Assembly: GCA_965223545.1 (NCBI GenBank)
Contig: OZ245006.1
Coordinates: 4,256,001-4,320,000 of the forward strand
Source of the DNA: Planctomycetota bacterium
GTDB taxonomy: Bacteria; Planctomycetota; UBA1135; UBA2386
Direction of reading: 5' to 3'
Length of the DNA stretch: 64,000 nt
Made by a program: the position numbers and the translations under genes. The notes beneath the pieces were generated by a model. The model saw only the letters and a program-made list of their open reading frames with translations. It had not been told where the DNA came from and did no database searches. Of this stretch, positions 47,586 through 59,929 are shown piece by piece. Every line of letters begins with the position of its first letter. Positions within the stretch are counted from its first letter, which is position 1.

Positions 47586-48611
47586 TCAATCGTCAGGGGC
47601 GAGGGTCGCGCCAGCGATGCTCTGCCACAGTGCGGCCTGCTCGGGTTCGGTGAAGGGCCAGGGTGTCGCGCGCAGCTCGACGCGATCGAAGCGCACGGCG
47701 CCGGGCGCCGGTCGCGATCCTGCCGCGGCGCGCAGCGCCGCGTCGGAGGCGCGCGCGTAGGCCAAGCTGAGGTGGGGTGTCGCGACGTCGAGCAATCGAC
47801 CGTCCAGGCCCTCGACCACCACCTCGGTCAGGTCGATCAAGGCGGGCGTCTCGGCCAGTTCGAGATACAGGGTGCGGCGTAGCTCGGCGCTGTGATGGAT
47901 CCCTTCGACTGCCAGCTCCAGTGGCCGATGAGTGATCGCGGGGATCGAAGTGAGAGTGGCGCGGAGACCCTCGAGGTCGCCGGCGCACTCGATGCTGGCG
48001 AGGGTCACGTGCGGCGCGAAGCGCGGGCTGCCCAGTCGCGATGCACAATCGTCGATCCAGGACTGCAGCGGGTCGCGCGCGGGCGGGGAGGGCATCAGCC
48101 ACACCGACACCACCCGCTCGCCGCGTCGCGGGCTGCGGCCGGTCCACAGGCCGAGAACACCCGCGAGGGTGTCGCGCACGCGCGCATCGATCCCCGGCGC
48201 GTTGGATCCGCGGGGTCCGGCGACGTTGAGGGTGCGCACCGCGTGTCGTCGGAGGAAGAACAGCAATCGGCTGGCATCGGCCTCGGCGGGCTCACCGGTG
48301 ATCAGCAGGTGCGGCTTGCCGGCCCGGGCGGCGAGCTCGAGCGTGAGCGCGGTGCCGCCGGTGGGCCGATCGACCGAGAATGCCACCGTGGCGTCCGCCG
48401 CGCGCACGTTGGCCTCGGTGCGCACCGCGTAGTTGCGCGACTCCAGCTCGCGCAGCGTATAGCGGTCGGGGATGCGGCCGTCCTCGGCGCGCCGGCCGGC
48501 GGGGCAGAAGCCGCCGTGCGCGATGCCGTGCGCGAGCGCGAAGTCGAGGGCGGCGCGGTCGGCGCCGGTCTGGCCGCCGGAGACGATGCGGGGGAACGGG
48601 AGAGCCGGCAT
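47586..48611 (-). CDS. Fusion of a SLOG domain (cpYpsA / putative molybdenum carrier) and a 2H phosphoesterase (CPDase-like)
   Basis: IVSGGQTGADRAALD, GGFCPAGRRAEDG, RTEANV, GGTALT, LNVAGPRGS; then SVWLMP...APHVTL...PHLSLAY (two HxT/S motifs). Confidence 0.85.
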   Translation of the reverse strand: MPALPFPRIVSGGQTGADRAALDFALAHGIAHGGFCPAGRRAEDGRIPDRYTLRELESRNYAVRTEANVRAADATVAFSVDRPTGGTALTLELAARAGKPHLLITGEPAEADASRLLFFLRRHAVRTLNVAGPRGSNAPGIDARVRDTLAGVLGLWTGRSPRRGERVVSVWLMPSPPARDPLQSWIDDCASRLGSPRFAPHVTLASIECAGDLEGLRATLTSIPAITHRPLELAVEGIHHSAELRRTLYLELAETPALIDLTEVVVEGLDGRLLDVATPHLSLAYARASDAALRAAAGSRPAPGAVRFDRVELRATPWPFTEPEQAALWQSIAGATLAPDD

Positions 48612-48682
48612 GGTTTGCGAACAGCGGGTGCGGTCGAGACCGGCCTCGGTCGGAGTGTCCGATCGAGCTAACCTCGGCGGTC

Positions 48683-49750
48683 GTGATTGCTCTCGACCTG
48701 CTCGGGCTGACGGCGGACGAGTGCCGCGCCCATGCGCGGCGGGCCGTCGGCCGCGGCGCCGGCCTGGCGGAGGCAGTGTATCGGGCGGCGATGCACACCG
48801 GCGAGCTCCGCGCCGAGGCACTCGGCGCGGGCGCGGATCGCGTTGCGCGGTGGCGGGCGGCGTTCCGCTGCCGGCTGCCCGGCGTGGTGCGCGAGCAGCG
48901 CGAGCGGTCCGGGCGCGGGCGCACCACGATCAAGCTGGTGCTGTGTGGAAGCGACGAGCGGCTCGAGTACGAGAGCGTGCTGATTCCCATGGGCGCCCTG
49001 CACACGACCCAGTGTCTGTCGACGCAGATCGGCTGTCGCATGGGCTGCCGGTTCTGCGAGACCGCGCGGATGGGGCGGCTGCGGGATCTCGAAGCCGGCG
49101 AGATCGTCGGGCAGGTGGTGTTGGCGGCGACGGTGCTCGGCGCCCGGCCGCGGGGGCTGGTGTTCCAGGGCATGGGGGAGCCGCTCGACAACACCGACGC
49201 CGTGCTGCAGGCACTCCGGGTCCTGACCGACCGCCGCGGACTAGGCTACGCGCAGGGGCGGCTGACGGTCTGCACGGTGGGGCGGCCCGAAGGCATCGCC
49301 CGGCTGGCCGGCCTCGGCTATCGGCGGCTCAACCTCGCGTTCAGCCTCAATGCCGCCGACGACGCACTGCGCCGCTCGTTGATGCCGAGTCACCGCGGGT
49401 ACACCCTGGCCGAGCTGCAGCGAAGCCTGATCGCCTATCGGCAGCGGCGGAACGCAGAGCTCGCGATCCACTACTGCTTGTTGCCGGGAATCAACGACAC
49501 AGCGCACGACGCCCGCGCCGTGGCTCGTTTCGTCGCTCCGCTGGGGCGGAGCGTCGTGCATCTGATCCCGTACAATCCGGGGCGCCGGCCGCTGTGCCGG
49601 GCGCCACACGCCGGAGAGGTCGCACGTTTCGTCGACTGGCTGCGGGCCGCCGACGTCGCCGTGCGCCGCCGCAACACCAAGGGCGCCACCGTGATGGCGG
49701 CTTGTGGTCAGCTCGGCAATCCGCAGCTGCGCCGCGCTTGTCAGCGGTAG
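48683..49750 (+). CDS. rlmN: RlmN/Cfr-family radical SAM RNA methyltransferase (RlmN-like, possibly a paralog)
   Basis: ESVLIP, CLSTQIGCRMGCRFC, GMGEPLDN, SLNA, GIND, LIPYNP, AACGQL. Confidence 0.85.
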   Translation: MIALDLLGLTADECRAHARRAVGRGAGLAEAVYRAAMHTGELRAEALGAGADRVARWRAAFRCRLPGVVREQRERSGRGRTTIKLVLCGSDERLEYESVLIPMGALHTTQCLSTQIGCRMGCRFCETARMGRLRDLEAGEIVGQVVLAATVLGARPRGLVFQGMGEPLDNTDAVLQALRVLTDRRGLGYAQGRLTVCTVGRPEGIARLAGLGYRRLNLAFSLNAADDALRRSLMPSHRGYTLAELQRSLIAYRQRRNAELAIHYCLLPGINDTAHDARAVARFVAPLGRSVVHLIPYNPGRRPLCRAPHAGEVARFVDWLRAADVAVRRRNTKGATVMAACGQLGNPQLRRACQR

Positions 49751-50307
49751 CTGAGCTGCCGCTCTCGCGGCTGGTACAGGCCACCGTCCACGGGCTCGTA
49801 CACCCGACAGGCACTCATCTCGCCGCCGTACACGTGCAGCGTCGCCGCTGGTTCGGCGAACGGGTTGCGGATCACGTGGTACTCGAAGGGAGGGATCAGC
49901 GAGCCGGCTTCACCGACGCCGGCGGTGACGTCGCTCTCGTGCGCGAAGCGCACACTGCCGTCGTCGAGGCGCTCGGTCAGCGCATAGGACTCGACCACGA
50001 TCTGGCCGCGGTACACGCACTCGACGCACCACAGGCCGGCGTGGTCGTGGATGGTCGTGCCCTGGCCCGGTCCCCACGACATCACCACGACGGTGTAGCG
50101 ACCGAGCGGGTCGCGGTGCAGCAGACGGCGCGCGTAGCCGTCGGCCGCCGGCTCGACCCAGTGCTCGGGGATCGAGGCGCCGCTCTGCACGAGGTCTTGC
50201 AGTGCGATCTTGACCGCTTCGCACCGCGCCGGGTCGTCGTCGGCAACGACGGCGTCGTCGAGGGCGGCCACCAGGCGGTCGACCGCGGCATCGGAAGGAT
50301 CGTTCAT
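49741..50307 (-). CDS. Cysteine/thiol dioxygenase family cupin
   Basis: YARRLL, MSWGPGQGTTIHDH, EYH, LHVY. Confidence 0.88.
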   Translation of the reverse strand: MNDPSDAAVDRLVAALDDAVVADDDPARCEAVKIALQDLVQSGASIPEHWVEPAADGYARRLLHRDPLGRYTVVVMSWGPGQGTTIHDHAGLWCVECVYRGQIVVESYALTERLDDGSVRFAHESDVTAGVGEAGSLIPPFEYHVIRNPFAEPAATLHVYGGEMSACRVYEPVDGGLYQPRERQLSYR

Positions 50308-50313
50308 CGCCGG

Positions 50314-50319
50314 ATGATA
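50314..50319 (-). promoter_or_regulatory. Putative -10 box (TATCAT), leaderless
   Basis: 6 nt upstream of ATG 50307. Confidence 0.5.
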
Positions 50320-50326
50320 ACCCCGA

Positions 50327-52258
50327 TCAGTCGGTGACGGCGTCGTGCACGAAGCGGACGAACCGCGCCACGCTGCCGGCTCCGGCGAGCTTGTCCACGA
50401 TCTCCTCCGTCTGCGGATCGACGATGACGTAGATCGGCAGCGCGACGGTGCCGGTGAACTTCTTCTGTAGCTCGAGGATGCGCTGGTGGTGCGGGCTGCT
50501 CTCGGTGTCGGTGTGCAGCCGGGCCTCGACCACGTGCTGGAGCTCCGCGGAGACCTCCGGGAGCGGGAACACGGATTCCTCCATGCCCCGGCAGTTCACT
50601 CAAGTGACCCCGGTGAAGTTGAGCAGCAGCTTGCGGTTGGTGTCGATGGCGATCTGCCGCGCCTTGTCGTAGTCGTCGACGACGATCGTGTGCGCGGCCG
50701 AGTGCGCGGCCTGGTCGCCGGATTCGCCGCCGGTGCCTGCCGAGGCGATGCGATTGCTGTACGGCGGCACGATCGACGTCATGATGAAGTCCATCCTGTT
50801 GCCGGCGGCGCCGTAGGCGCAGTAGATCGCGAGCAACGCCGTCGCCAAAGCGCCGGTGAGGCGGCCACTGCCGATCGAGCCGACATCTTCCTTGAGCTTG
50901 ATGATGCCGAACAGCAACAGCGCCGCGATGCCGAAGATGCCGGCCCAGAGCGAGAGGAACAGCTCGCGCGACAGCCAGCCCCAGCCCCAGACCATGTCGA
51001 CGTTCGACAGGAACTTCAGCGCTGCCGCCAGCTCGACGAAGCCGAGGAACACCTTGAGCGTGTTCATCCACTCACCGCTGCGCGGCATCGTCTGCAGCTT
51101 GCTGGGCAGGAGCGAGAGCAGCACGAAGGGCAAGGCCATGGTCGCACCGAACACCGCCATGCCGAGCACCAGTCTGCCCAATCCGCCCGTCGCGCCGACG
51201 GCGAGCAGGTTGCCGACGAATGGTGCAGTGCAGGTGAACGAGGTGATCACCAGGGTGGCACCCATCAAGAACACGCCGGTGTAGCCGCCGGCGCCGCTGC
51301 TCTTGGCGGCGGCGTTCATCAAGAACGCCGGGGGCTGCAGGTTGATGACACCGAACAGCACCAGCGCGAAGACGAAGAACAGCGCGGCGATGACCAGGTT
51401 GGTGATCGGGTGCACCGCGAACGGAGCGATGGCCTGGCCGATCGTGACCGCGATCAACACGAACATCGCGACGATGCCCAGGCCGTAGGTCACCGCCAGC
51501 GGCAGTGGGCTGCGGCCGCTGTCCGCCGCCTGCTTGGTGAAGAAGGAGATCGTGATCGGGATCATCGGGTAGGTGCAGGGCATCGCGAGCGCGAACAGCC
51601 CTCCGCCGATGGCGAGCAGGATGAATGCCCACAGCGAGTCGTCGGTCCCCTCTTCGCCGGCTCTCTCGGATGTGGCTTCCTCGGATGCAGCTTCTGCGGC
51701 GTTTGCCTCGTTCTCGTCACCCTCGCTCGGCGCGTGTTCCGGGCGGACGGCACCCTCCTCGATGGCCAGCTCGACCGAGAACCTCTCGGTGGCTTCCGGA
51801 TCGCAGAACGACTCCGTGCACGCCATGTAGACCAGCTGGCCCTCGAGCTCGACGGCGCCCGGCGCGTGGCCCTCGGCGATCCGCATCTTCTGGCGCACGA
51901 CGAACTCGTCCTCGATCCAGAACGACTCGATGCCGAAGGACTCGTGCGGCTCGCCGAAAGGCACTTCTGCGGTGCCCTGGCGCGCGATGCCTTCGCGCTC
52001 GTCGACGGACAGCGTCGTCGGTGTGCCGGTGCTGTCTCCGGCCCCGTACAAATGCCAGCCGGGCACGATCTCGACCGCCAGCTCGACCGTGACGACCTCA
52101 CCCGGCCGCGCTGGATTGGGCGAGACGCTGGCCTCGGTGGTGATCTTGGGGCCCTCGGTCGGCAGGGCGAGCGGGTCGAACTCGCCCGGCACCTGGGCCG
52201 TGGTGCTGGCGGCGAGGCAGGCGACGGCGAGGGCAATCGCAGCGGATCGTGGCATCAT
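50327..52258 (-). CDS. dsbD: Thiol:disulfide interchange protein DsbD, predicted selenoprotein (UGA at 50600-50602, U-V-N-C)
   Basis: Signal peptide; N-terminal domain PGWHLY...YMACTESFC; TM domain MPCTYPMIP and SFTCTAP; the thioredoxin domain continues in frame as NFTGVT-UGA-VNCRGME...LPIYVIVDP. Confidence 0.9.
50566..50589 (-). promoter_or_regulatory. Bacterial SECIS-like hairpin
   Basis: GGGGCAUGGA-GGAA-UCCGUGUUCC: 10-bp stem (three G-U pairs) starting 11 nt after UGA, G-initiated loop. Confidence 0.75.
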
Positions 52259-52481
52259 GTCTGGCGGGTCAGGAGCCGTTCGGCGGGCGGCGGGCGAGCT
52301 CGCGGATGCTACCGCCGGCCCGCCGCGCGTGGGATTGGCACTTACGACAAACGAGTCCCGGGTGGCCTTCCTGGGCGGCGAAAAAAAGCCGCGGCCGGCT
52401 CCGGGCGGGTCCGCGCGGCTGCGCTCGCGGCGGCGGGGGATGGCGCTCGCGTGGCCCGCGCGCGGCCCGTATAGCGGGGCC

Positions 52482-54650
52482 ATGAGAGCGCTCCTCGTTC
52501 CCGTCTCGTGTGCCGTCAGCCTGCTGATCGCGCCGGTCTTCGCGCAGCAGAAACCGTTGTCTCGCGAGCAGGCCCTCGGCAGCGGCGAACGCGTGCGATG
52601 GTATTCGACGCCGGAGCGCGTGCGCTGGGCGCCCGATGGCGTGCACTACGCGATCCGCCGCGAGGGCAAGGTCGTCTGGGTGCATCCGGAGTCGGGAGCG
52701 GTGGTGTCGCCGCCGGCCGACGCGCGCCGCGGAGAGCGGGCGCCGCGCCCGCGCGGGCCGGGCGGTGCCGCCGGTGGTGACCCGCGCGTGAGGACGCGCG
52801 ACGGCGACCTGTGGTTCGGTCCCCCTGGCGCCGCCAACGACGGTGCCGCGAAGCGGCTGACCAAGGACGGGTTGGCCAAGGACATCGTCACGGTCAGCCC
52901 GAACGGCGAGTACGTCTCGTTCACCGCCGAGAACAACCTGTCGGTGGTGCGCGTGGAGGACGCCAGCGAGTGGAAGGTCACCGAGGACGGTGGGCCCAGC
53001 ATGTTCTGCGGCATCCTCGACTGGGTCTATCAAGAAGAGCTGTACGGCCGCTTCAACTATCGCGGTCACTGGTGGAGCCCGGACAGCAAGGCTGTGGCCT
53101 ACCTGCGGCTCGACGAGAAGGACGTCAAGACCTTCACCATCGTCGACTTCGTGCCGAAGCCTTCGCTCGACGAGGAGCGCTCGGTCGAGCCCGAGTTTCA
53201 GAAGTACCCCAAAGCGGGCGATGCCAACCCCACGGTGCGTCTGTTGGTGGCGCATCCCGAGACGCGCTCGCAGGTCGAGATCGACCTCTCCGACTATCCG
53301 GCTGACGTGCTCGTCGTGCGCGTGGGGTGGACGCCGGACTCCCGGCTGTTGTTCGCGGTGCAGGATCGCATCCAGACCTGGATGGACCTCAACGTCGCCG
53401 ATCCGCAGTCCGGCGCTTGGGTCAAGCTGATCCACGAGGCGTCCGAGACCTGGGTCAACCGACTGCCGTTCCCGGAGTGGTTGCCGGACGGGTCGTTCTT
53501 GTGGCTGAGCGAGCGCACCGGCTACCAGCACCTCTACCACTACGACGACAAGGGCGCCCTCGTGCGGCCGCTGACCGCCGGCGATTGGCAGGTCACCGAC
53601 TTGGTGCGGGTCGACGCCAGCGACGGAGTGCGGCGATGCTGGTTCACCGCTACCAAAGACGGCGCCATCGACAGCAATCTGTACTCGGTGGGGTTGGACG
53701 GCGGCGACATCGTGCGGTTGACCGAGGGCGAAGGCCGCCACTCGACCAGTCTCAACAAGGACGGTTCGTGGTTTCTGGACACCGTGTCGTCGATCGAGAC
53801 CCCGCCCGAGGTCCGCCTGTGCAAGGGCGACGGCTCGGGCTTCGTCGTGCTGGACAAGGCCGAGCCGCGCGCCGTCGAGACCCATCAGTACTACCCCAGG
53901 CAGCGGCTGACGATCCCTGCGCGCGACGGCTATCCGCTCGACGCGACGGTGATCCTCCCCCCGGGCCACGCCGACGGCAGTGGTCCGCACCCGATCTATC
54001 TGCCCACGTATTCCGGGCCCGATGCGCCGTCGGTGCGGAACGCGTTCTCGATCAACACCATGCACCAGTACCTGGCGCAGCAGGGTTGTGTGATCCTGCA
54101 GGTCAACGTGCGCAGCGCCAGCGGCCGCGGCCAGGCGCATACGGGCTTGGCCTACAAGCGGCTCGGTGTCTATGAGCTGCGCGATCTCGAAGACGCCGTT
54201 GCCTACGTCATCGAGAACCACGGTGGCGATCCCACCCGCGTGGCGATCGACGGCTGGAGCTACGGTGGGTTCATGGCGGCCTACGCGCTGACCCACAGCA
54301 AGGTGTTCTCTTTGGGGATCTCCGGCGCGGGAGTGCACGACTGGCAGCTCTACGACACGATCTACACCGAGCGCTACATGAGCACGCCGCAGCTCAACCC
54401 GGAGGGCTATCGCGAGACCTCGGTGATCGCCGGCGCCGCCAACCTGCACGGGCACTTGGTGCTGATGCACGGGGCCCGCGACGACAACGTTCACCTGCAG
54501 AACACCCTACGGCTGGTCTACGAGCTGCAGGCGGCGGGCCACGACAACTTCGAGCTGATGATCTACCCGCGCTCGCGGCACGGCGTGCGCGGCAGCCACC
54601 GCGGCAAGTTCGTGCTGCGCGCGATCGAGCGGCATTTGCTCGGCACCTGA
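52482..54650 (+). CDS. Secreted dipeptidyl peptidase IV family (S9B) peptidase
   Basis: Signal peptide VFA-Q; DWVYQEE, YPKAG, GWSYGG nucleophile elbow, YDTIYTERYM, DDNVH, terminal His in RSRHG. Confidence 0.95.
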   Translation: MRALLVPVSCAVSLLIAPVFAQQKPLSREQALGSGERVRWYSTPERVRWAPDGVHYAIRREGKVVWVHPESGAVVSPPADARRGERAPRPRGPGGAAGGDPRVRTRDGDLWFGPPGAANDGAAKRLTKDGLAKDIVTVSPNGEYVSFTAENNLSVVRVEDASEWKVTEDGGPSMFCGILDWVYQEELYGRFNYRGHWWSPDSKAVAYLRLDEKDVKTFTIVDFVPKPSLDEERSVEPEFQKYPKAGDANPTVRLLVAHPETRSQVEIDLSDYPADVLVVRVGWTPDSRLLFAVQDRIQTWMDLNVADPQSGAWVKLIHEASETWVNRLPFPEWLPDGSFLWLSERTGYQHLYHYDDKGALVRPLTAGDWQVTDLVRVDASDGVRRCWFTATKDGAIDSNLYSVGLDGGDIVRLTEGEGRHSTSLNKDGSWFLDTVSSIETPPEVRLCKGDGSGFVVLDKAEPRAVETHQYYPRQRLTIPARDGYPLDATVILPPGHADGSGPHPIYLPTYSGPDAPSVRNAFSINTMHQYLAQQGCVILQVNVRSASGRGQAHTGLAYKRLGVYELRDLEDAVAYVIENHGGDPTRVAIDGWSYGGFMAAYALTHSKVFSLGISGAGVHDWQLYDTIYTERYMSTPQLNPEGYRETSVIAGAANLHGHLVLMHGARDDNVHLQNTLRLVYELQAAGHDNFELMIYPRSRHGVRGSHRGKFVLRAIERHLLGT

Positions 54651-54798
54651 CCGGCGGGCGGTGGTCGGTCCCCCTGCCGCCCATGGCACCGGGCAGACGG
54701 CGGCCACCGCGTCGATCCGGCGGTTTGTGGCGTCGGCTGCGGTAGCATTCTCCAGCGGCGGGGCTCGCTTCCACACACGCCGACCGCTCGAAGATCGA

Positions 54799-57090
54799 AT
54801 GCCGCACTCCACCTGTGTCTCGCCCACCCCGCGCCGCCGGCGCGAGTTCTGGCTGCTCGCTGCCAGCCTGGCCGCCACCACCGCCTGCACCCGGTTGAGC
54901 TCGGACCGGGCGCCGCTGGTCAATCCGACGCCGCCGTCGGGGTCGATCGGTGATCGCGTGTGGAGCGATCTGAATTGCGACGGCATTCAGGACCCCGGCG
55001 AGCCGGGGCTCGACGGCGTGAAGCTGACGCTGCGCGACTCCGACGGAGTCGAGGTCGGCACCGCGGTGACGGGCACCGTGGCCGGTCGAGCCGGCGTCTA
55101 CCGCTTCGGTCGGCTCGCCGCCGGGACCTACACCATCGACGTCGACTCCGGCACTGCGACGGGCACACCCTCGCCCTGTGCAGTCGGTGGCAACCGCGCG
55201 GTCGACAGCGACTGTGCGCCGGCGACCGTGGTGCTCGTGGCCGACGACAGCCAGGATTCGTCCGTCGATTTCGGTTTCTGTCCGCCGGCGATGCGCTGCG
55301 AGGCGACGATCGGCGATCGCGTCTGGCACGATCTCGACTGCGATGGCATTCAGGATGCCGGCGAGCCGGGGCTGGACGGAGTCACGCTGCGGCTGCGCGA
55401 CGGGACGGGTGCCCTGCTCGCCACCGCGACCAGCGGCCGGGGGCCGACCGGGGAGCGCGGCCACTATCAGTTCTCCGGGGTCTGCGCCGGGACCTACGAG
55501 GTCGAGGTCGACTTGACCACGCTGCCGCCGGGCTTCTATCCGTCTCCGTGCGGCGTCGGCACGAACCCGTTCGGCAACAGTGAGTGCACGCCAACCGCGG
55601 TGACGGTGGTCGGGTCCGAGGACGATCCGAGCATCGATTTCGGCTTCTGCTCCTCCGGCTCGGGCGTCATCGGTGACTTCGTCTGGCACGACGTCAATGG
55701 CGATGGCATCCAGAACCCCGACGAGCTCGACGACGGGATCGATGGGGTGCGGGTGGTCCTGCGCGATGCCATCGGCGCCGAGCTGGCGTCGACGGCGACG
55801 GCGAGGGGTGGCAGCTACGCGTTCACCGGCCTCTTGGCCGGGACCTACTCGGTCGAGATCGACGGAAGCACACTGCCGCCGGGATTCTCGCCCACGGCGT
55901 CGGCCGCCGGCTCCAATCCCGCCTTGGACAGCAACGCGAGCCCGGCCATGGTCGTGCTTCCCACCGACGACAGTGTCGACCTGAGCATCGATTTCGGCTT
56001 CGTCGGCGCCGGTGCCGCGGGCGTCGGCGACTTCGTCTGGCTCGACCTCGATGCGGACGGCCTGCAAAGCAGCGGCGAGCCCGGCTTGTTCGGCGTGCGC
56101 GTCCAGCTGCGCGACGCGAGTGGCGCAGTCGTTCGCGTCGACGATACGGACGCCGCGGGGGGATACTCCTTCTTCGGCTTGGTGGCGGGGACCTACACCG
56201 TCGAGGTCGATGCGGCGTCGGTGCCGGGTTGGATGTTCGCCGCGCCCTGCCGCGTCGGTTCCAACCCCGCGCTCGACAACGACTGCAGCCCGGCTTCGGT
56301 CACCCTGGCCGCCAATCAGTACGATCCGACCGTCGACTTCGGCTTCGTCTCCGGCGGCACCGCGCTGGTGGGCGACTTCGTCTGGTTGGACGATGACGCC
56401 GACGGCGTACAGGATCCGGGTGAACCGGGGATCTCGGGCGCGGTCGTCGAGCTGCGCGATCCACAGCTGCGCCGGCTGATGTTGGCGGCGACCGACAGCA
56501 TGGGGGTCTACACCTTCCCCGCGCTGCCCGGCGGCGACTACCTCGTGCAGGTCGATCCGACCAGCGTGCCGGCGGGGCTGGCGCCGTCGCCCTGCGAGGT
56601 CGGGGTCGATCCCGCGCTCGACAGCAACTGTGCTCCCGCTGCTGTCAACCTGGCGCCGGGTGAGATCGTTCTCGACATCGACTTCGGCTTCCAGTCGCCC
56701 TGCAGCGCGCGGCTCGGTGACTTGGTGTGGTACGACGCGGACTGCGACGGCTTGCAAGAGGCCGGCGAGCCGGGCATTGCCGGGGTGACGGTCCTGTTGC
56801 GCGACGCCGCCTACAACGTGATCGGCCGCACGGTCACCGACGGCAACGGCCTGTATCTGTTCAGCGGCTTGTGCGAGGCGACCTACGTGGTCGAGGTCGA
56901 CGAGACCACTCTGCCACCCAACCTGGCGCCGTCCCCGTGCAACATCGGGCCCGACGACACCATCGACAACGACTGCAGCCCGGCGACGGTCTCGCTGATC
57001 AGTGGCTCGGTGTGGGACCTGAGCGTCGACTTCGGCTACCTGCCGCACTTCTTGCGGCCGCCGAGCGGCACCATGTCACCGACGCAGTGA
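54799..57090 (+). CDS. Exported protein made of six SdrD B-like (CnaB-type) Ca-binding repeats
   Basis: Six units starting (I/V/L)GDxVWxDxxxDG and ending DFG(F/Y); possible RR and lipobox (RRRREF...TTAC). Confidence 0.88.
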   Translation: MPHSTCVSPTPRRRREFWLLAASLAATTACTRLSSDRAPLVNPTPPSGSIGDRVWSDLNCDGIQDPGEPGLDGVKLTLRDSDGVEVGTAVTGTVAGRAGVYRFGRLAAGTYTIDVDSGTATGTPSPCAVGGNRAVDSDCAPATVVLVADDSQDSSVDFGFCPPAMRCEATIGDRVWHDLDCDGIQDAGEPGLDGVTLRLRDGTGALLATATSGRGPTGERGHYQFSGVCAGTYEVEVDLTTLPPGFYPSPCGVGTNPFGNSECTPTAVTVVGSEDDPSIDFGFCSSGSGVIGDFVWHDVNGDGIQNPDELDDGIDGVRVVLRDAIGAELASTATARGGSYAFTGLLAGTYSVEIDGSTLPPGFSPTASAAGSNPALDSNASPAMVVLPTDDSVDLSIDFGFVGAGAAGVGDFVWLDLDADGLQSSGEPGLFGVRVQLRDASGAVVRVDDTDAAGGYSFFGLVAGTYTVEVDAASVPGWMFAAPCRVGSNPALDNDCSPASVTLAANQYDPTVDFGFVSGGTALVGDFVWLDDDADGVQDPGEPGISGAVVELRDPQLRRLMLAATDSMGVYTFPALPGGDYLVQVDPTSVPAGLAPSPCEVGVDPALDSNCAPAAVNLAPGEIVLDIDFGFQSPCSARLGDLVWYDADCDGLQEAGEPGIAGVTVLLRDAAYNVIGRTVTDGNGLYLFSGLCEATYVVEVDETTLPPNLAPSPCNIGPDDTIDNDCSPATVSLISGSVWDLSVDFGYLPHFLRPPSGTMSPTQ

Positions 57091-57903: not shown

Positions 57904-58881
57904 GTGCCCTACCCCGAGCTCCCTGACCTCCAAGATCCCGCCCGGCGGCGGGCGCCGGTTCCCGTCGGGCTGTTGTCGGGCAAGCGCACACCCCTGCGCC
58001 GGTTGGCTTCGCTGGGGACCGCCACGGTCAACCGGGTGCTCGACAAGCTGATGCCGTCCGGCCTCTTGCACCGCTTTCTGCAGCGCGGTCTGGAGTTCAG
58101 TGAGGTCGACGTCGTGCTGCGGCGCGGCCACCGGGCACTGCACGGCTTGCGGATCGCGTTCCTGACCGATCTCCACGCCGGCAGCTTCATGAGCGAGCGC
58201 GACTTGCTGCGCATCTTCGCGAAGGTGGGAGAACGCGCACCGGATCTCGTGCTGCTCGGCGGTGATCTGATCAACACGTTCGACCGCGAGATCTTGCTCT
58301 TGCGCGAGCCGCTGCGCGCGATCGCGCCGCGATACGGTGTGTTTGCCGTGCCGGGCAACCACGACCGCTTCTACGGCAACGACATCGGCCTGTGGACGTC
58401 GTTCTTGAGCACCCACGGGGTGCGGGTCCTGCTCAACGAGGGTTGTCGGATCGAGCACGGCGACGGCGGGCTCTGGCTCGCAGGCGTCGACGACCTCACC
58501 GAGGGCCAACCCGACCTGGGCGCGGCCCTGGCGGGTCGCCGCGCCGACGAACCCGTGCTCCTGTTGTCCCATCACCCGGACTTCTTCTTCGAGGCGGCGG
58601 CCGCCGGCGTCGACCTGACGCTGTCGGGCCATACGCATGGTGGTCAGGTGGTGCTGTTCGGCGTTCCGCCGCTCACCCACAGCAGGTTCGGATACGCGAG
58701 CGGCAGCTACGAAGCTGCCGGCTCCCAGCTGTACGTCAGTAGAGGAGTCGGGGTGACGTTCCTGCCGCTGCGCGTCGGTGCGCCGCCGGAAGTGCCGATC
58801 CTGCGGCTGTGCGTGCCGGCGGCGGCGGGGGATGGCGCGGGCGCGGAGGTCGTCGAGACCGAAGGTGCGTCCTGCCGGTAA
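57904..58881 (+). CDS. Calcineurin-like metallophosphoesterase (YkuE/YaeI-like)
   Basis: TDLH, GGD, GNHD, SHHPD, SGHTHGGQ, VSRGVG; GAGGA upstream of GTG 57904. Confidence 0.92.
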   Translation: MPYPELPDLQDPARRRAPVPVGLLSGKRTPLRRLASLGTATVNRVLDKLMPSGLLHRFLQRGLEFSEVDVVLRRGHRALHGLRIAFLTDLHAGSFMSERDLLRIFAKVGERAPDLVLLGGDLINTFDREILLLREPLRAIAPRYGVFAVPGNHDRFYGNDIGLWTSFLSTHGVRVLLNEGCRIEHGDGGLWLAGVDDLTEGQPDLGAALAGRRADEPVLLLSHHPDFFFEAAAAGVDLTLSGHTHGGQVVLFGVPPLTHSRFGYASGSYEAAGSQLYVSRGVGVTFLPLRVGAPPEVPILRLCVPAAAGDGAGAEVVETEGASCR

Positions 58882-58891
58882 CATCCGGCTT

Positions 58892-59929
58892 GTGCAACCA
58901 CCGATCGAGACGCTGGGGCGGGTGATCGAGGCGATCGACTCGCACACCGAAGGCGAGCCGACGCGCATCCTCACCGGATTCTCGGACGTCGCCGGCGACA
59001 CCATGGCCGAGCGGCGCGCGACCCTGCTCGCCGAGCACGACGACGTGCGCCGGGCCTTGGTGCGGGAGCCGCGCGGCACCGAAGCCATCGTGCTGGCGTA
59101 TCTCACCCGGCCCGAGCACGCGCAAGCCGACGCCGGCGTGGTGTTCGCCAACGACGCGGGCTACCTCGGCATGTGCGGTCACGGCGCCATCGGCGTCGCG
59201 ACGGTGTTGGTGCGCACCGGCCGGGTGCCCGCGCGGGAGCCCTGCACCGACGTCGTGCTCGACACGCCGGTCGGCCAGGTGCGGGCGCGGGTGGCGGTCC
59301 GCGACGCCCGGCCGCGGTCGGTGGCGATCGCCAACGTGCCGTCGTTCGTGCACGAGCTCGGTGTCCGCGTGCAACCGCGCGGCCTTCCGGCGGTCGATGT
59401 CGACATCGCGTGGGGTGGAAACTGGTTCGGGTTCGTGCGCGGGCGCGACCTCGGGCTGACCCCGTGCATGGCCGAGCTCGAGGCGCTGATGGCGGCCGCG
59501 ATCGAGATCCGTGCCGAGCTCGAGCGGCGCGGCGTGCGCGGCGTCCAACCGACCGACGGTGAGGACGGTCGCGTCGATCACATCAAGATCTACGCCGACG
59601 AGACCGACGGCGACGGCCCGGCGACGCGCGCGCTGACCCTGTGCCCCGGCCGCGCCTACGACCGGTCGCCGTGTGGCACGGGGACCTCGGCCAAGCTCGC
59701 CGTGCTGCACGCCCGCGGCGAGATCGCCGTCGGCCAGCGGCTGCGCAGCCGCAGCGTGCTGGGCACGGAGTTCGGTGCCGTCATCACCGGTGTGACCACG
59801 GTCGAAGGGCGCGCGGCCGTGCTGCCGGAGATCGAAGGAACCGCCTTCATCACCGGCGTGCAGCGGTTCGTCCTCGATCCGGACGACCCGCTGCGGGCGG
59901 GGATCGAGCCGCCACCCGCCTCGTCGTGA
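58892..59929 (+). CDS. Proline racemase / hydroxyproline 2-epimerase family (Cys/Cys dyad)
   Basis: IDSHTEGEPTR, EPRG, MCGHG, GGNWF, DRSPCGTGTSAK; TAACAT -10 at 58879-58884. Confidence 0.93.
   Translation: MQPPIETLGRVIEAIDSHTEGEPTRILTGFSDVAGDTMAERRATLLAEHDDVRRALVREPRGTEAIVLAYLTRPEHAQADAGVVFANDAGYLGMCGHGAIGVATVLVRTGRVPAREPCTDVVLDTPVGQVRARVAVRDARPRSVAIANVPSFVHELGVRVQPRGLPAVDVDIAWGGNWFGFVRGRDLGLTPCMAELEALMAAAIEIRAELERRGVRGVQPTDGEDGRVDHIKIYADETDGDGPATRALTLCPGRAYDRSPCGTGTSAKLAVLHARGEIAVGQRLRSRSVLGTEFGAVITGVTTVEGRAAVLPEIEGTAFITGVQRFVLDPDDPLRAGIEPPPASS

Follow-up and report, generated by a model that had tools for sequence, protein, structure and literature searches.

The closest described systems are DsbD of Escherichia coli (NF001419/PRK00293; 1l6p, 1vrs, 2fwh) and the Bacteroides domain 3f9u. 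With E. coli DsbD, the protein described here has three domains in the same order and a redox pair in each of them in common (PMC2631958). It is encoded in a stretch of 64,000 nucleotides of a Planctomycetota genome (contig OZ245006.1, positions 4,256,001 to 4,320,000), which is called the window in the following. In E. coli DsbD and in the window DsbD alike, the attacking residue is located in the C-terminal thioredoxin domain (PMC2631958), but the position that is taken by Cys461 in E. coli is occupied by a predicted selenocysteine (Sec) in the window protein. The NCBIfam model NF001419 (protein-disulfide reductase DsbD) scored 148.8 bits, which is under its curated cut-off of 330, and judged by its sequence the window protein is a divergent DsbD of the 3f9u type.

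Selenoproteins of a related kind have been catalogued before. A UxxC “thiol:disulfide interchange protein” with the PF13098 domain (WP_011366075.1) is given in Table 1 of PMC13188914, a “thiol:disulfide interchange” selenoprotein family occurs in Geobacter and Syntrophus (PMC1794560), and the GOS family “Trx-like 2” comprises 22 UxxC sequences under cd02953 (PMC2398784, Table 2 and Dataset S1). These catalogued UxxC selenoproteins (PF13098 / GOS “Trx-like 2”) share with the window DsbD a UxxC motif in a thioredoxin domain, and PF13098 is matched here as well. The model cd02953 is presumably the DsbD-gamma model. By eye, the 22 “Trx-like 2” sequences, which are read fragments, all lack a transmembrane DsbD domain as well as the N-F-T-G motif, for which a search of Dataset S1 yielded one unrelated entry only. 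Most of the sequences have the appearance of small, secreted thioredoxins that possess a helical tail, and one single read looks like a fragment of a DsbD C-domain from a proteobacterium and contains U (PMC2398784). Because of this one read, a Sec-containing DsbD domain has a thin precedent in print. TsoB, a rhodanese/DsbD fusion-like selenoprotein (NF045694), has the DsbD transmembrane region in common with the window protein (residues 192-420, E 9.6e-36), but it contains two Sec residues (UxxxxU) and a rhodanese domain, whereas the window DsbD has one Sec (UxxC) and, according to Pfam, no rhodanese domain; with 123 bits against a cut-off of 805, its assignment to TsoB was rejected also on the score. 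Within the available part of PMC13188914, which lists 119 selenoprotein families, TsoB is the only mention of DsbD. The matched supplement rows of PMC4807772 hold two thioredoxin-like candidates and no DsbD, and the accessible parts of PMC13326102 and PMC12013277 do not mention Dsb. Periplasmic bacterial selenoenzymes as such are known, namely Fdh-N and Fdh-O of E. coli (PMC3160892). A full-length three-domain Sec-DsbD was not found in the portions of the literature searched, and BSepDB, which covers Planctomycetota, could hold the gene under a generic name. Within this scope the predicted full-length Sec-DsbD is new, whereas UxxC “thiol:disulfide interchange” selenoproteins are already catalogued.

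The dsbD frame, translated with TGA as U, lies on the minus strand of the window (52258-50327) and comprises 643 codons followed by a terminal TGA (Table 1). Apart from this stop, codon 553 (window 50602-50600) is the only TGA codon in the frame. It is embedded in the residues LLLNFTGVT-U-VNCRGMEESVFP and occupies the attacking Cys position of a U-V-N-C motif in the C-terminal thioredoxin domain. Under table 11, the gene is called as two open reading frames, 50600-52483 and 50327-50599. GC3 amounts to 0.91 on the 5' side of the internal TGA and to 0.96 on its 3' side. A preliminary description of the window had pointed out the split at the TGA and the continuing frame, and it had placed the TGA at the first Cys of the C-terminal CxxC of a DsbD whose remaining Cys pairs are intact. 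We found the same split and context, a pairing of Cys and TGA at this column in 103 loci (see below), and both Cys147/Cys152 and Cys228/Cys343 in place.

Table 1. Positions of the dsbD gene, its domains and residues, the candidate SECIS hairpins, neighbouring genes and further TGA candidates (window coordinates, unless preceded by C1).
Feature	Position	Strand	Basis
dsbD, 643 codons and terminal TGA, start Met1 or Met2	50327..52258	-	frame reading; GC3
Predicted signal peptide, residues 1-21	52196..52258	-	hydrophobic N-terminal helix; cleavage site judged by eye
N-terminal Ig-like domain (nDsbD)	51773..52114	-	PF11412 E 3.4e-8, over cut-off; Foldseek match 1l6p (E. coli nDsbD) E 4.7e-4
Cys147 and Cys152 of nDsbD	51820-51818 and 51805-51803	-	
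Transmembrane domain, ~8 helices	50807..51643	-	PF02683 E 1.9e-24; helices in AlphaFold model
Cys228 and Cys343 of the transmembrane domain	51577-51575 and 51232-51230	-	
C-terminal thioredoxin-fold domain (cDsbD)	50330..50689	-	PF13098 (over cut-off) and PF13899; PDB 3f9u
In-frame TGA, codon 553, predicted Sec, attacking residue of U-V-N-C	50600..50602	-	frame, Cys pairing, second-sample contig
Cys556, predicted resolving cysteine	50591..50593	-	frame reading
Near hairpin, 10-pair stem, GGAA loop 20 nt past UGA	50566..50589	-	fits published bacterial SECIS model (by hand)
Far hairpin, GGUC loop (50555-50552) 44 nt past UGA, candidate SelB-binding apex	50542..50564	-	
Radical SAM protein	48380-49750	+	
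DPP-IV/S9 peptidase, divergent from dsbD	52482-54650	+	
SdrD-B repeat protein	54661-57090	+	
Proline racemase family protein	58778-59929	+	
TGA candidates 1-6 of 12 (UxxC/CxxU)	C1:4588495, 4702574, 5604750, 6226245, 5051261, 3529969		
TGA candidates 7-12 of 12 (UxxC/CxxU)	C1:3116011, 1338116, 7929240, 473266, 4468926, 7238172		

Pfam assigned DsbD_N to residues 49-162, DsbD_TM to residues 210-419 and a thioredoxin domain to residues 528-634. In many orthologues (L010-L037, L118-L137), additional DsbD_N-like domains are arrayed in tandem further upstream within the frame; a single such domain is present in the window gene. The C-terminal domain matches 3f9u, the sole PDB sequence match of the protein, by sequence (E 6.8e-7) as well as by fold (E 2e-5) and aligns to its CxxC. 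In an AlphaFold model with Cys modelled at position 553 (mean pLDDT 84, pTM 0.66), three parts are seen: an Ig-like domain, a bundle of membrane helices and a thioredoxin fold. In Foldseek, this model is matched best by 3f9u, the C-terminal domain from Bacteroides, and by nDsbD of E. coli. Cys228 and Cys343 are invariant among 60 aligned proteins, and both transmembrane Cys motifs are kept in 82 of the 85 loci with TGA and in 16 of the 18 loci with Cys at the codon-553 column; additional cysteines of the window protein are Cys14 and Cys480. The signal-like N-terminus and the approximately eight helices, of which the hydropathy scan missed helix 464-484, agree with periplasmic soluble domains, and we infer that the Sec-bearing thioredoxin domain would be extracytoplasmic.

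For the comparison of orthologues, 130 loci were pooled (the 30 best loci of one search, the best 80 of 327 from another and 20 more, the latter picked partly for having no stop), and duplicates were collapsed, which yielded a non-random sample of 103 distinct loci with the own gene counted. The codon-553 column of these loci holds TGA in 85, TGC in 15 and TGT in 3 cases and no other codon. The homologues thus pair UGA with Cys at this column, as was to be expected from the preliminary description, and with 85 TGA against 18 TGC/TGT codons among the 103 loci, the TGA does not stand there by chance. Past the TGA, the frame stays open for 84-121 codons in 84 of the 85 loci, and in the remaining one the end of the locus is reached after 53. 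Of 251 genomes sampled evenly over the phylum, 123 gave a match. From outside the order 40 rows were retrieved (28 one-TGA, 12 no-stop), three of which repeat loci of one of the searches behind the 103-locus pool. TGA was found at this column in 27 of the 28 one-TGA rows (22 by pattern, 5 from printed context) and elsewhere in one, and the no-stop rows have Cys there in 10 of 12 cases, the residue being unread in the other two. The tree of the 103 loci requires 6 state changes, and 13 are required on a 71-row subsample, which was composed of 25 TGA rows (random ones and the own), 28 rows from the phylum-wide sample and the full set of 18 Cys rows. Kin among the rows are not independent. Some Cys clades are nested within well-supported Sec clades, but because the trees are unrooted, the direction of the Cys/Sec change is not shown in general. 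Going by these sequences, a predicted selenium-containing DsbD is most likely present in many Planctomycetota.

Decoding of UGA as Sec depends on selA, selB, selD and selC, and the objection that the genome might lack this machinery does not hold, since all four are present. Each was matched over cut-off: selA with 464 bits at C1:1265001, selB with 318 bits at C1:7664772, selD with 346 bits at C1:1264004 and tRNA-Sec, with a UCA anticodon, with 74 bits at C1:7952888. The selD gene has itself one in-frame TGA in a G-G-G-U-A-A-K motif. Among relatives in the order, selA occurs in 59 of 60 and tRNA-Sec in 55 of 60 genomes. A match to selA was also obtained in 59 of 60 picked one-TGA genomes (26 families) versus 23 of 30 picked no-stop genomes; G280 is a TGA genome without a selA match and is 90% complete. 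Loss of selA was considered as a general cause of the Cys forms and rejected, because Cys-form genomes in the order keep selA and outside the order 23 of 30 no-stop genomes do so as well. As Cys orthologues persist in Sec-competent genomes, Sec seems to be an optional upgrade.

We consider it very probable that the internal UGA of the full-length dsbD is decoded as selenocysteine, with selenium presumably being incorporated at position 553. A read-through with Cys, Trp or another residue by means of an altered code or a suppressor tRNA is highly improbable. A Cys at position 553 would work, as 18 of 103 orthologues have a Cys codon there, and SECIS-dependent insertion of Cys has been reported from some bacteria. 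However, TGA serves as the main stop in this genome, closing 1055 of the 1374 long, coding-like ORFs, and a prfB gene is present. The Trp codons of dsbD, 8 in number, are without exception TGG, and tRNA-Sec is the only UCA-anticodon tRNA among the 64 tRNAs found.

There is equally little probability that the TGA is a true stop, which would leave a 552-residue two-domain product and a 90-codon tail as a separate gene or relic, or that it is a sequencing error. It is true that the public gene calls end at this TGA (P0002 and 84 others among the best 120), that a GTG directly follows it, and that some truncated product is to be expected, as termination competes with recoding. Yet the column always holds TGA and never TAA or TAG as a stop, while TAG or TAA terminate 36 of the same 85 genes, and Cys codons are the sole alternative to this TGA, with no fewer than 6 switches on the order-level tree and 13 on the phylum-wide subsample. 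In addition, the tail is conserved and has the high GC3 given above, and a product restarted after the TGA would be without the attacking residue and the export signal. As regards an error, for which TGC or TGT in the reads had been named beforehand as the telltale sign, window 50200-50848 is matched with 0 differences, and thus identically across the TGA, by a contig (word depth about 388) that stems from another sample of the same study; run X1 is possibly the source of the window and so not independent, and runs X5 and X6 are without coverage of the codon.

A SECIS-like structure, for which a search had been suggested in the preliminary description, was found after the UGA. Folding of the 63 nt from the UGA on gives two hairpins (-30.2 kcal/mol, z -2.2), called near and far hairpin here. 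With the bacterial SECIS consensus (bSECISearch model, PMC13188914) this structure shares an in-frame stem-loop after the UGA and an apex of G followed by G/U. The published model asks for a loop of 3-9 nt, a G at the apex, a spacing of 16-37 nt and at most -7.5 kcal/mol, and the existence of non-conforming SECIS elements is noted in the same paper (PMC13188914). The near hairpin lies within all four constraints, but the far apex falls outside the spacing: the conserved apex stands 44 nt off, behind a second hairpin. Compared to synonymous shuffles, both hairpins are more stable (near, -16.1 versus -8.3 kcal/mol, p 0.006; far, -14.9 versus -6.3 kcal/mol, p 0.014), with p 0.11 for the downstream control. 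A far stem of at least 4 pairs is present in 67 of 85 TGA loci, missing in the other 18, and present in 0 of 18 Cys loci; its apex stands 44 nt from the UGA in 63 of these 67 genes (overall 38-50 nt). GGUC forms the far loop in 68 of the 80 TGA genes that align without gaps, whereas the near loop is highly variable; 5 TGA and 2 Cys rows with register shifts are left out of this loop count. Where the far hairpin encodes Ala-Val-Ala, GCG-GTC-GCC is used in 50 of 62 genes against 5.6 expected from each gene's own usage, and Glu +7 is encoded by GAA in 54 of 80 TGA genes and 2 of 16 Cys genes, compared to 27% gene-wide. In the two-hairpin structure, 80.9% of cells are paired (91% in the near stem), the covariation score is 0.234 versus 0.123 in shuffled and at most 0.145 in slid controls, and two-sided changes are seen in 86 cells versus 34 in shuffled ones and exceed every slid control, the structure having been drawn from these same sequences.

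Other results speak for caution about the hairpins. RNAalifold gave no consensus structure on the 85 TGA flanks (0 pairs), and Rfam had no match around codon 553. Most of the pairing is expected from the amino acids alone (near, 5.45 versus 5.14 of 6; far, 4.03 versus 3.54 of 5), and only 22 and 19 of 85 individual genes, about a quarter, beat their synonymous shuffles. When GGYY-loop hairpins behind any TGA were counted over the whole genome (599 sites), no peak appeared at 44 nt, so this spacing is not a genome-wide rule.

In the proposed mechanism, SelB with Sec-tRNA would bind an in-frame SECIS. As its apex we favour the far GGUC loop, which the near hairpin may bring within the reach of SelB. 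Alternatively, the decoding could be ordinary, with the near hairpin as the SECIS and the far GGUC hairpin as an accessory or a by-product of conserved residues. We regard this as rather unlikely, although a good deal fits it: the agreement of the near hairpin of the window gene with all four published constraints, the family-wide retention of its stem, the GAA bias at Glu +7 in TGA genes, and the lack of the far GGUC stem in most of the distant phylum members. It is the far loop, however, and not the near one whose sequence is conserved, and a GGUC apex occurs at normal spacing in other selenoprotein candidates of the genome (C1:6226245, C1:5051261). Furthermore, GU is found in the near loop of 13 of 18 genes without a far stem versus 2 of 67 with one, a trait that was defined after the data had been seen; in a phylogenetically independent test it gave 3 pairs on well-supported branches, on average 2.3 of them in the same direction, which is not significant (sign test p 0.5). 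Orthologues without the far hairpin include L015, L034, L058, L063, L073, L081, L114 and L129, most of them with GU in the near loop. These data suggest that the SECIS apex moves between the hairpins in evolution, albeit on too few independent events.

By analogy to E. coli, we infer electron flow, topology, partners and selenium use of the window DsbD as follows. Cytoplasmic thioredoxin would reduce Cys228/Cys343 (modelled on E. coli DsbD, PMC2631958), this pair would reduce the Sec553-Cys556 selenenylsulfide, and the selenolate of Sec553 would attack the Cys147-Cys152 disulfide. From there, nDsbD could hand the reductant on to proteins of thioredoxin fold in the periplasm, for instance isomerases, exported redoxins and factors of cytochrome c maturation. 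The U-x-x-C site of this membrane reductant relay is predicted to face the periplasm. Selenium would speed the Sec553 step and resist over-oxidation, and owing to its low pKa Sec would be ionised at all times. In E. coli DsbD, Cys461 is kept unreactive, with a pKa of 10.5-10.6, by Asp455 and Glu468 (PMC2631958, PMC3961690), and a variant with a more reactive Cys461 is only about 75% functional (PMC3961690). Counted from the attacking residue, the Asp455 position carries Asn in 84 of the 85 Sec orthologues and in 16 of the 18 Cys orthologues, and Glu468 is kept. Since Asn is present in Sec and Cys forms alike, the family seems to have left the E. coli gate independently of selenium. The dsbD gene is the only PF02683 match in the genome, which is 91% complete. 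A PF13386 (DsbD_2) membrane protein is encoded at C1:3318250-3318810 (+) (locus L181) and might provide a second trans-membrane reductant route; DsbD as the sole membrane reductant conduit is therefore not secure. By a crude count, the genome has 67 CxxCH ORFs.

With regard to the neighbourhood, a cysteine dioxygenase type I gene (PF05995; window 49741-50307, minus strand) begins 19 nt past the end of dsbD, also in minus orientation, and might share a transcript with it. Linkage to dsbD was seen in only 4 of 103 loci for this gene and at the window locus alone for the peptidase and radical-SAM neighbours, all in flanks of uneven length. No link to Sec-DsbD was seen for the four plus-strand neighbours (peptidase, radical SAM, SdrD-B, proline racemase), and neither a sigma-70 promoter nor a useful terminator was found. 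Elsewhere in the genome, a second selenoprotein candidate of about 610 codons is located at C1:3622532 (-) (locus L139), with an in-frame TGA in W-L-U-M-C, a C-terminal DsbD_N domain (PF11412 E 3e-14) and a hairpin downstream; it is possibly a partner-type relay protein. An unrelated UxxC candidate at C1:3793782 (-) shows the two-hairpin layout of dsbD, with an A-rich loop in its near hairpin and a GGU loop in its far one. In total, 17 TGA candidates of the UxxC/CxxU type were counted, some of which are probably false, and 12 of them look thioredoxin-, redoxin-, AhpD- or ArsC-like by eye (Table 1). From its sequence, the genome looks rich in redox selenoproteins. The prfB match (C1:3852269-3853294, plus strand) contains one TGA, which we take to be the usual programmed frameshift, and an EF-Tu-like match beside tRNA genes (C1:889915-891150, minus strand) contains one internal TAA.

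It had been anticipated that annotation pipelines would present a Sec-DsbD as truncated, and this is borne out by public entries: among the best 120 of 1637 public protein matches, 85 end on the residue before codon 553 (80 by pattern, 5 by eye), including the own 552-residue call of the window gene. Of the same 120, 34 run through with C, 1 has another residue and 0 have U. As U may be rendered as C, annotated selenoproteins could be among these 34; two of them were matched to loci, with TGC in both. Some of the public proteins go by the name of CcdA or hypothetical protein. In practice, the catalytic domain is missing from 85 of the 120 closest public entries.

Among bacterial selenoproteins, thioredoxin folds with Sec in place of Cys are the most frequent kind, and the finding is therefore only moderately surprising. 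Its interest lies in DsbD being the textbook case of a nucleophile held unreactive until the partner domain docks (Cys461, pKa 10.5). A natural Sec beside close Cys orthologues permits a direct comparison of what selenium gains in a membrane disulfide cascade, and the same Sec/Cys pair would also tell whether the high-pKa gate is general. Due to the far-set apex and its apparent hand-over between hairpins, the SECIS spacing rule becomes testable with natural variants. We put forward tentatively, as a possibility somewhat short of even, that in Planctomycetota the main periplasmic reductant conduit is a selenoenzyme without a deliberately unreactive thiol, decoded through a two-hairpin SECIS with a mobile SelB apex at 44 nt. 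If this is true, the selenium supply would set the amount of full-length DsbD and hence the reducing power of the periplasm.
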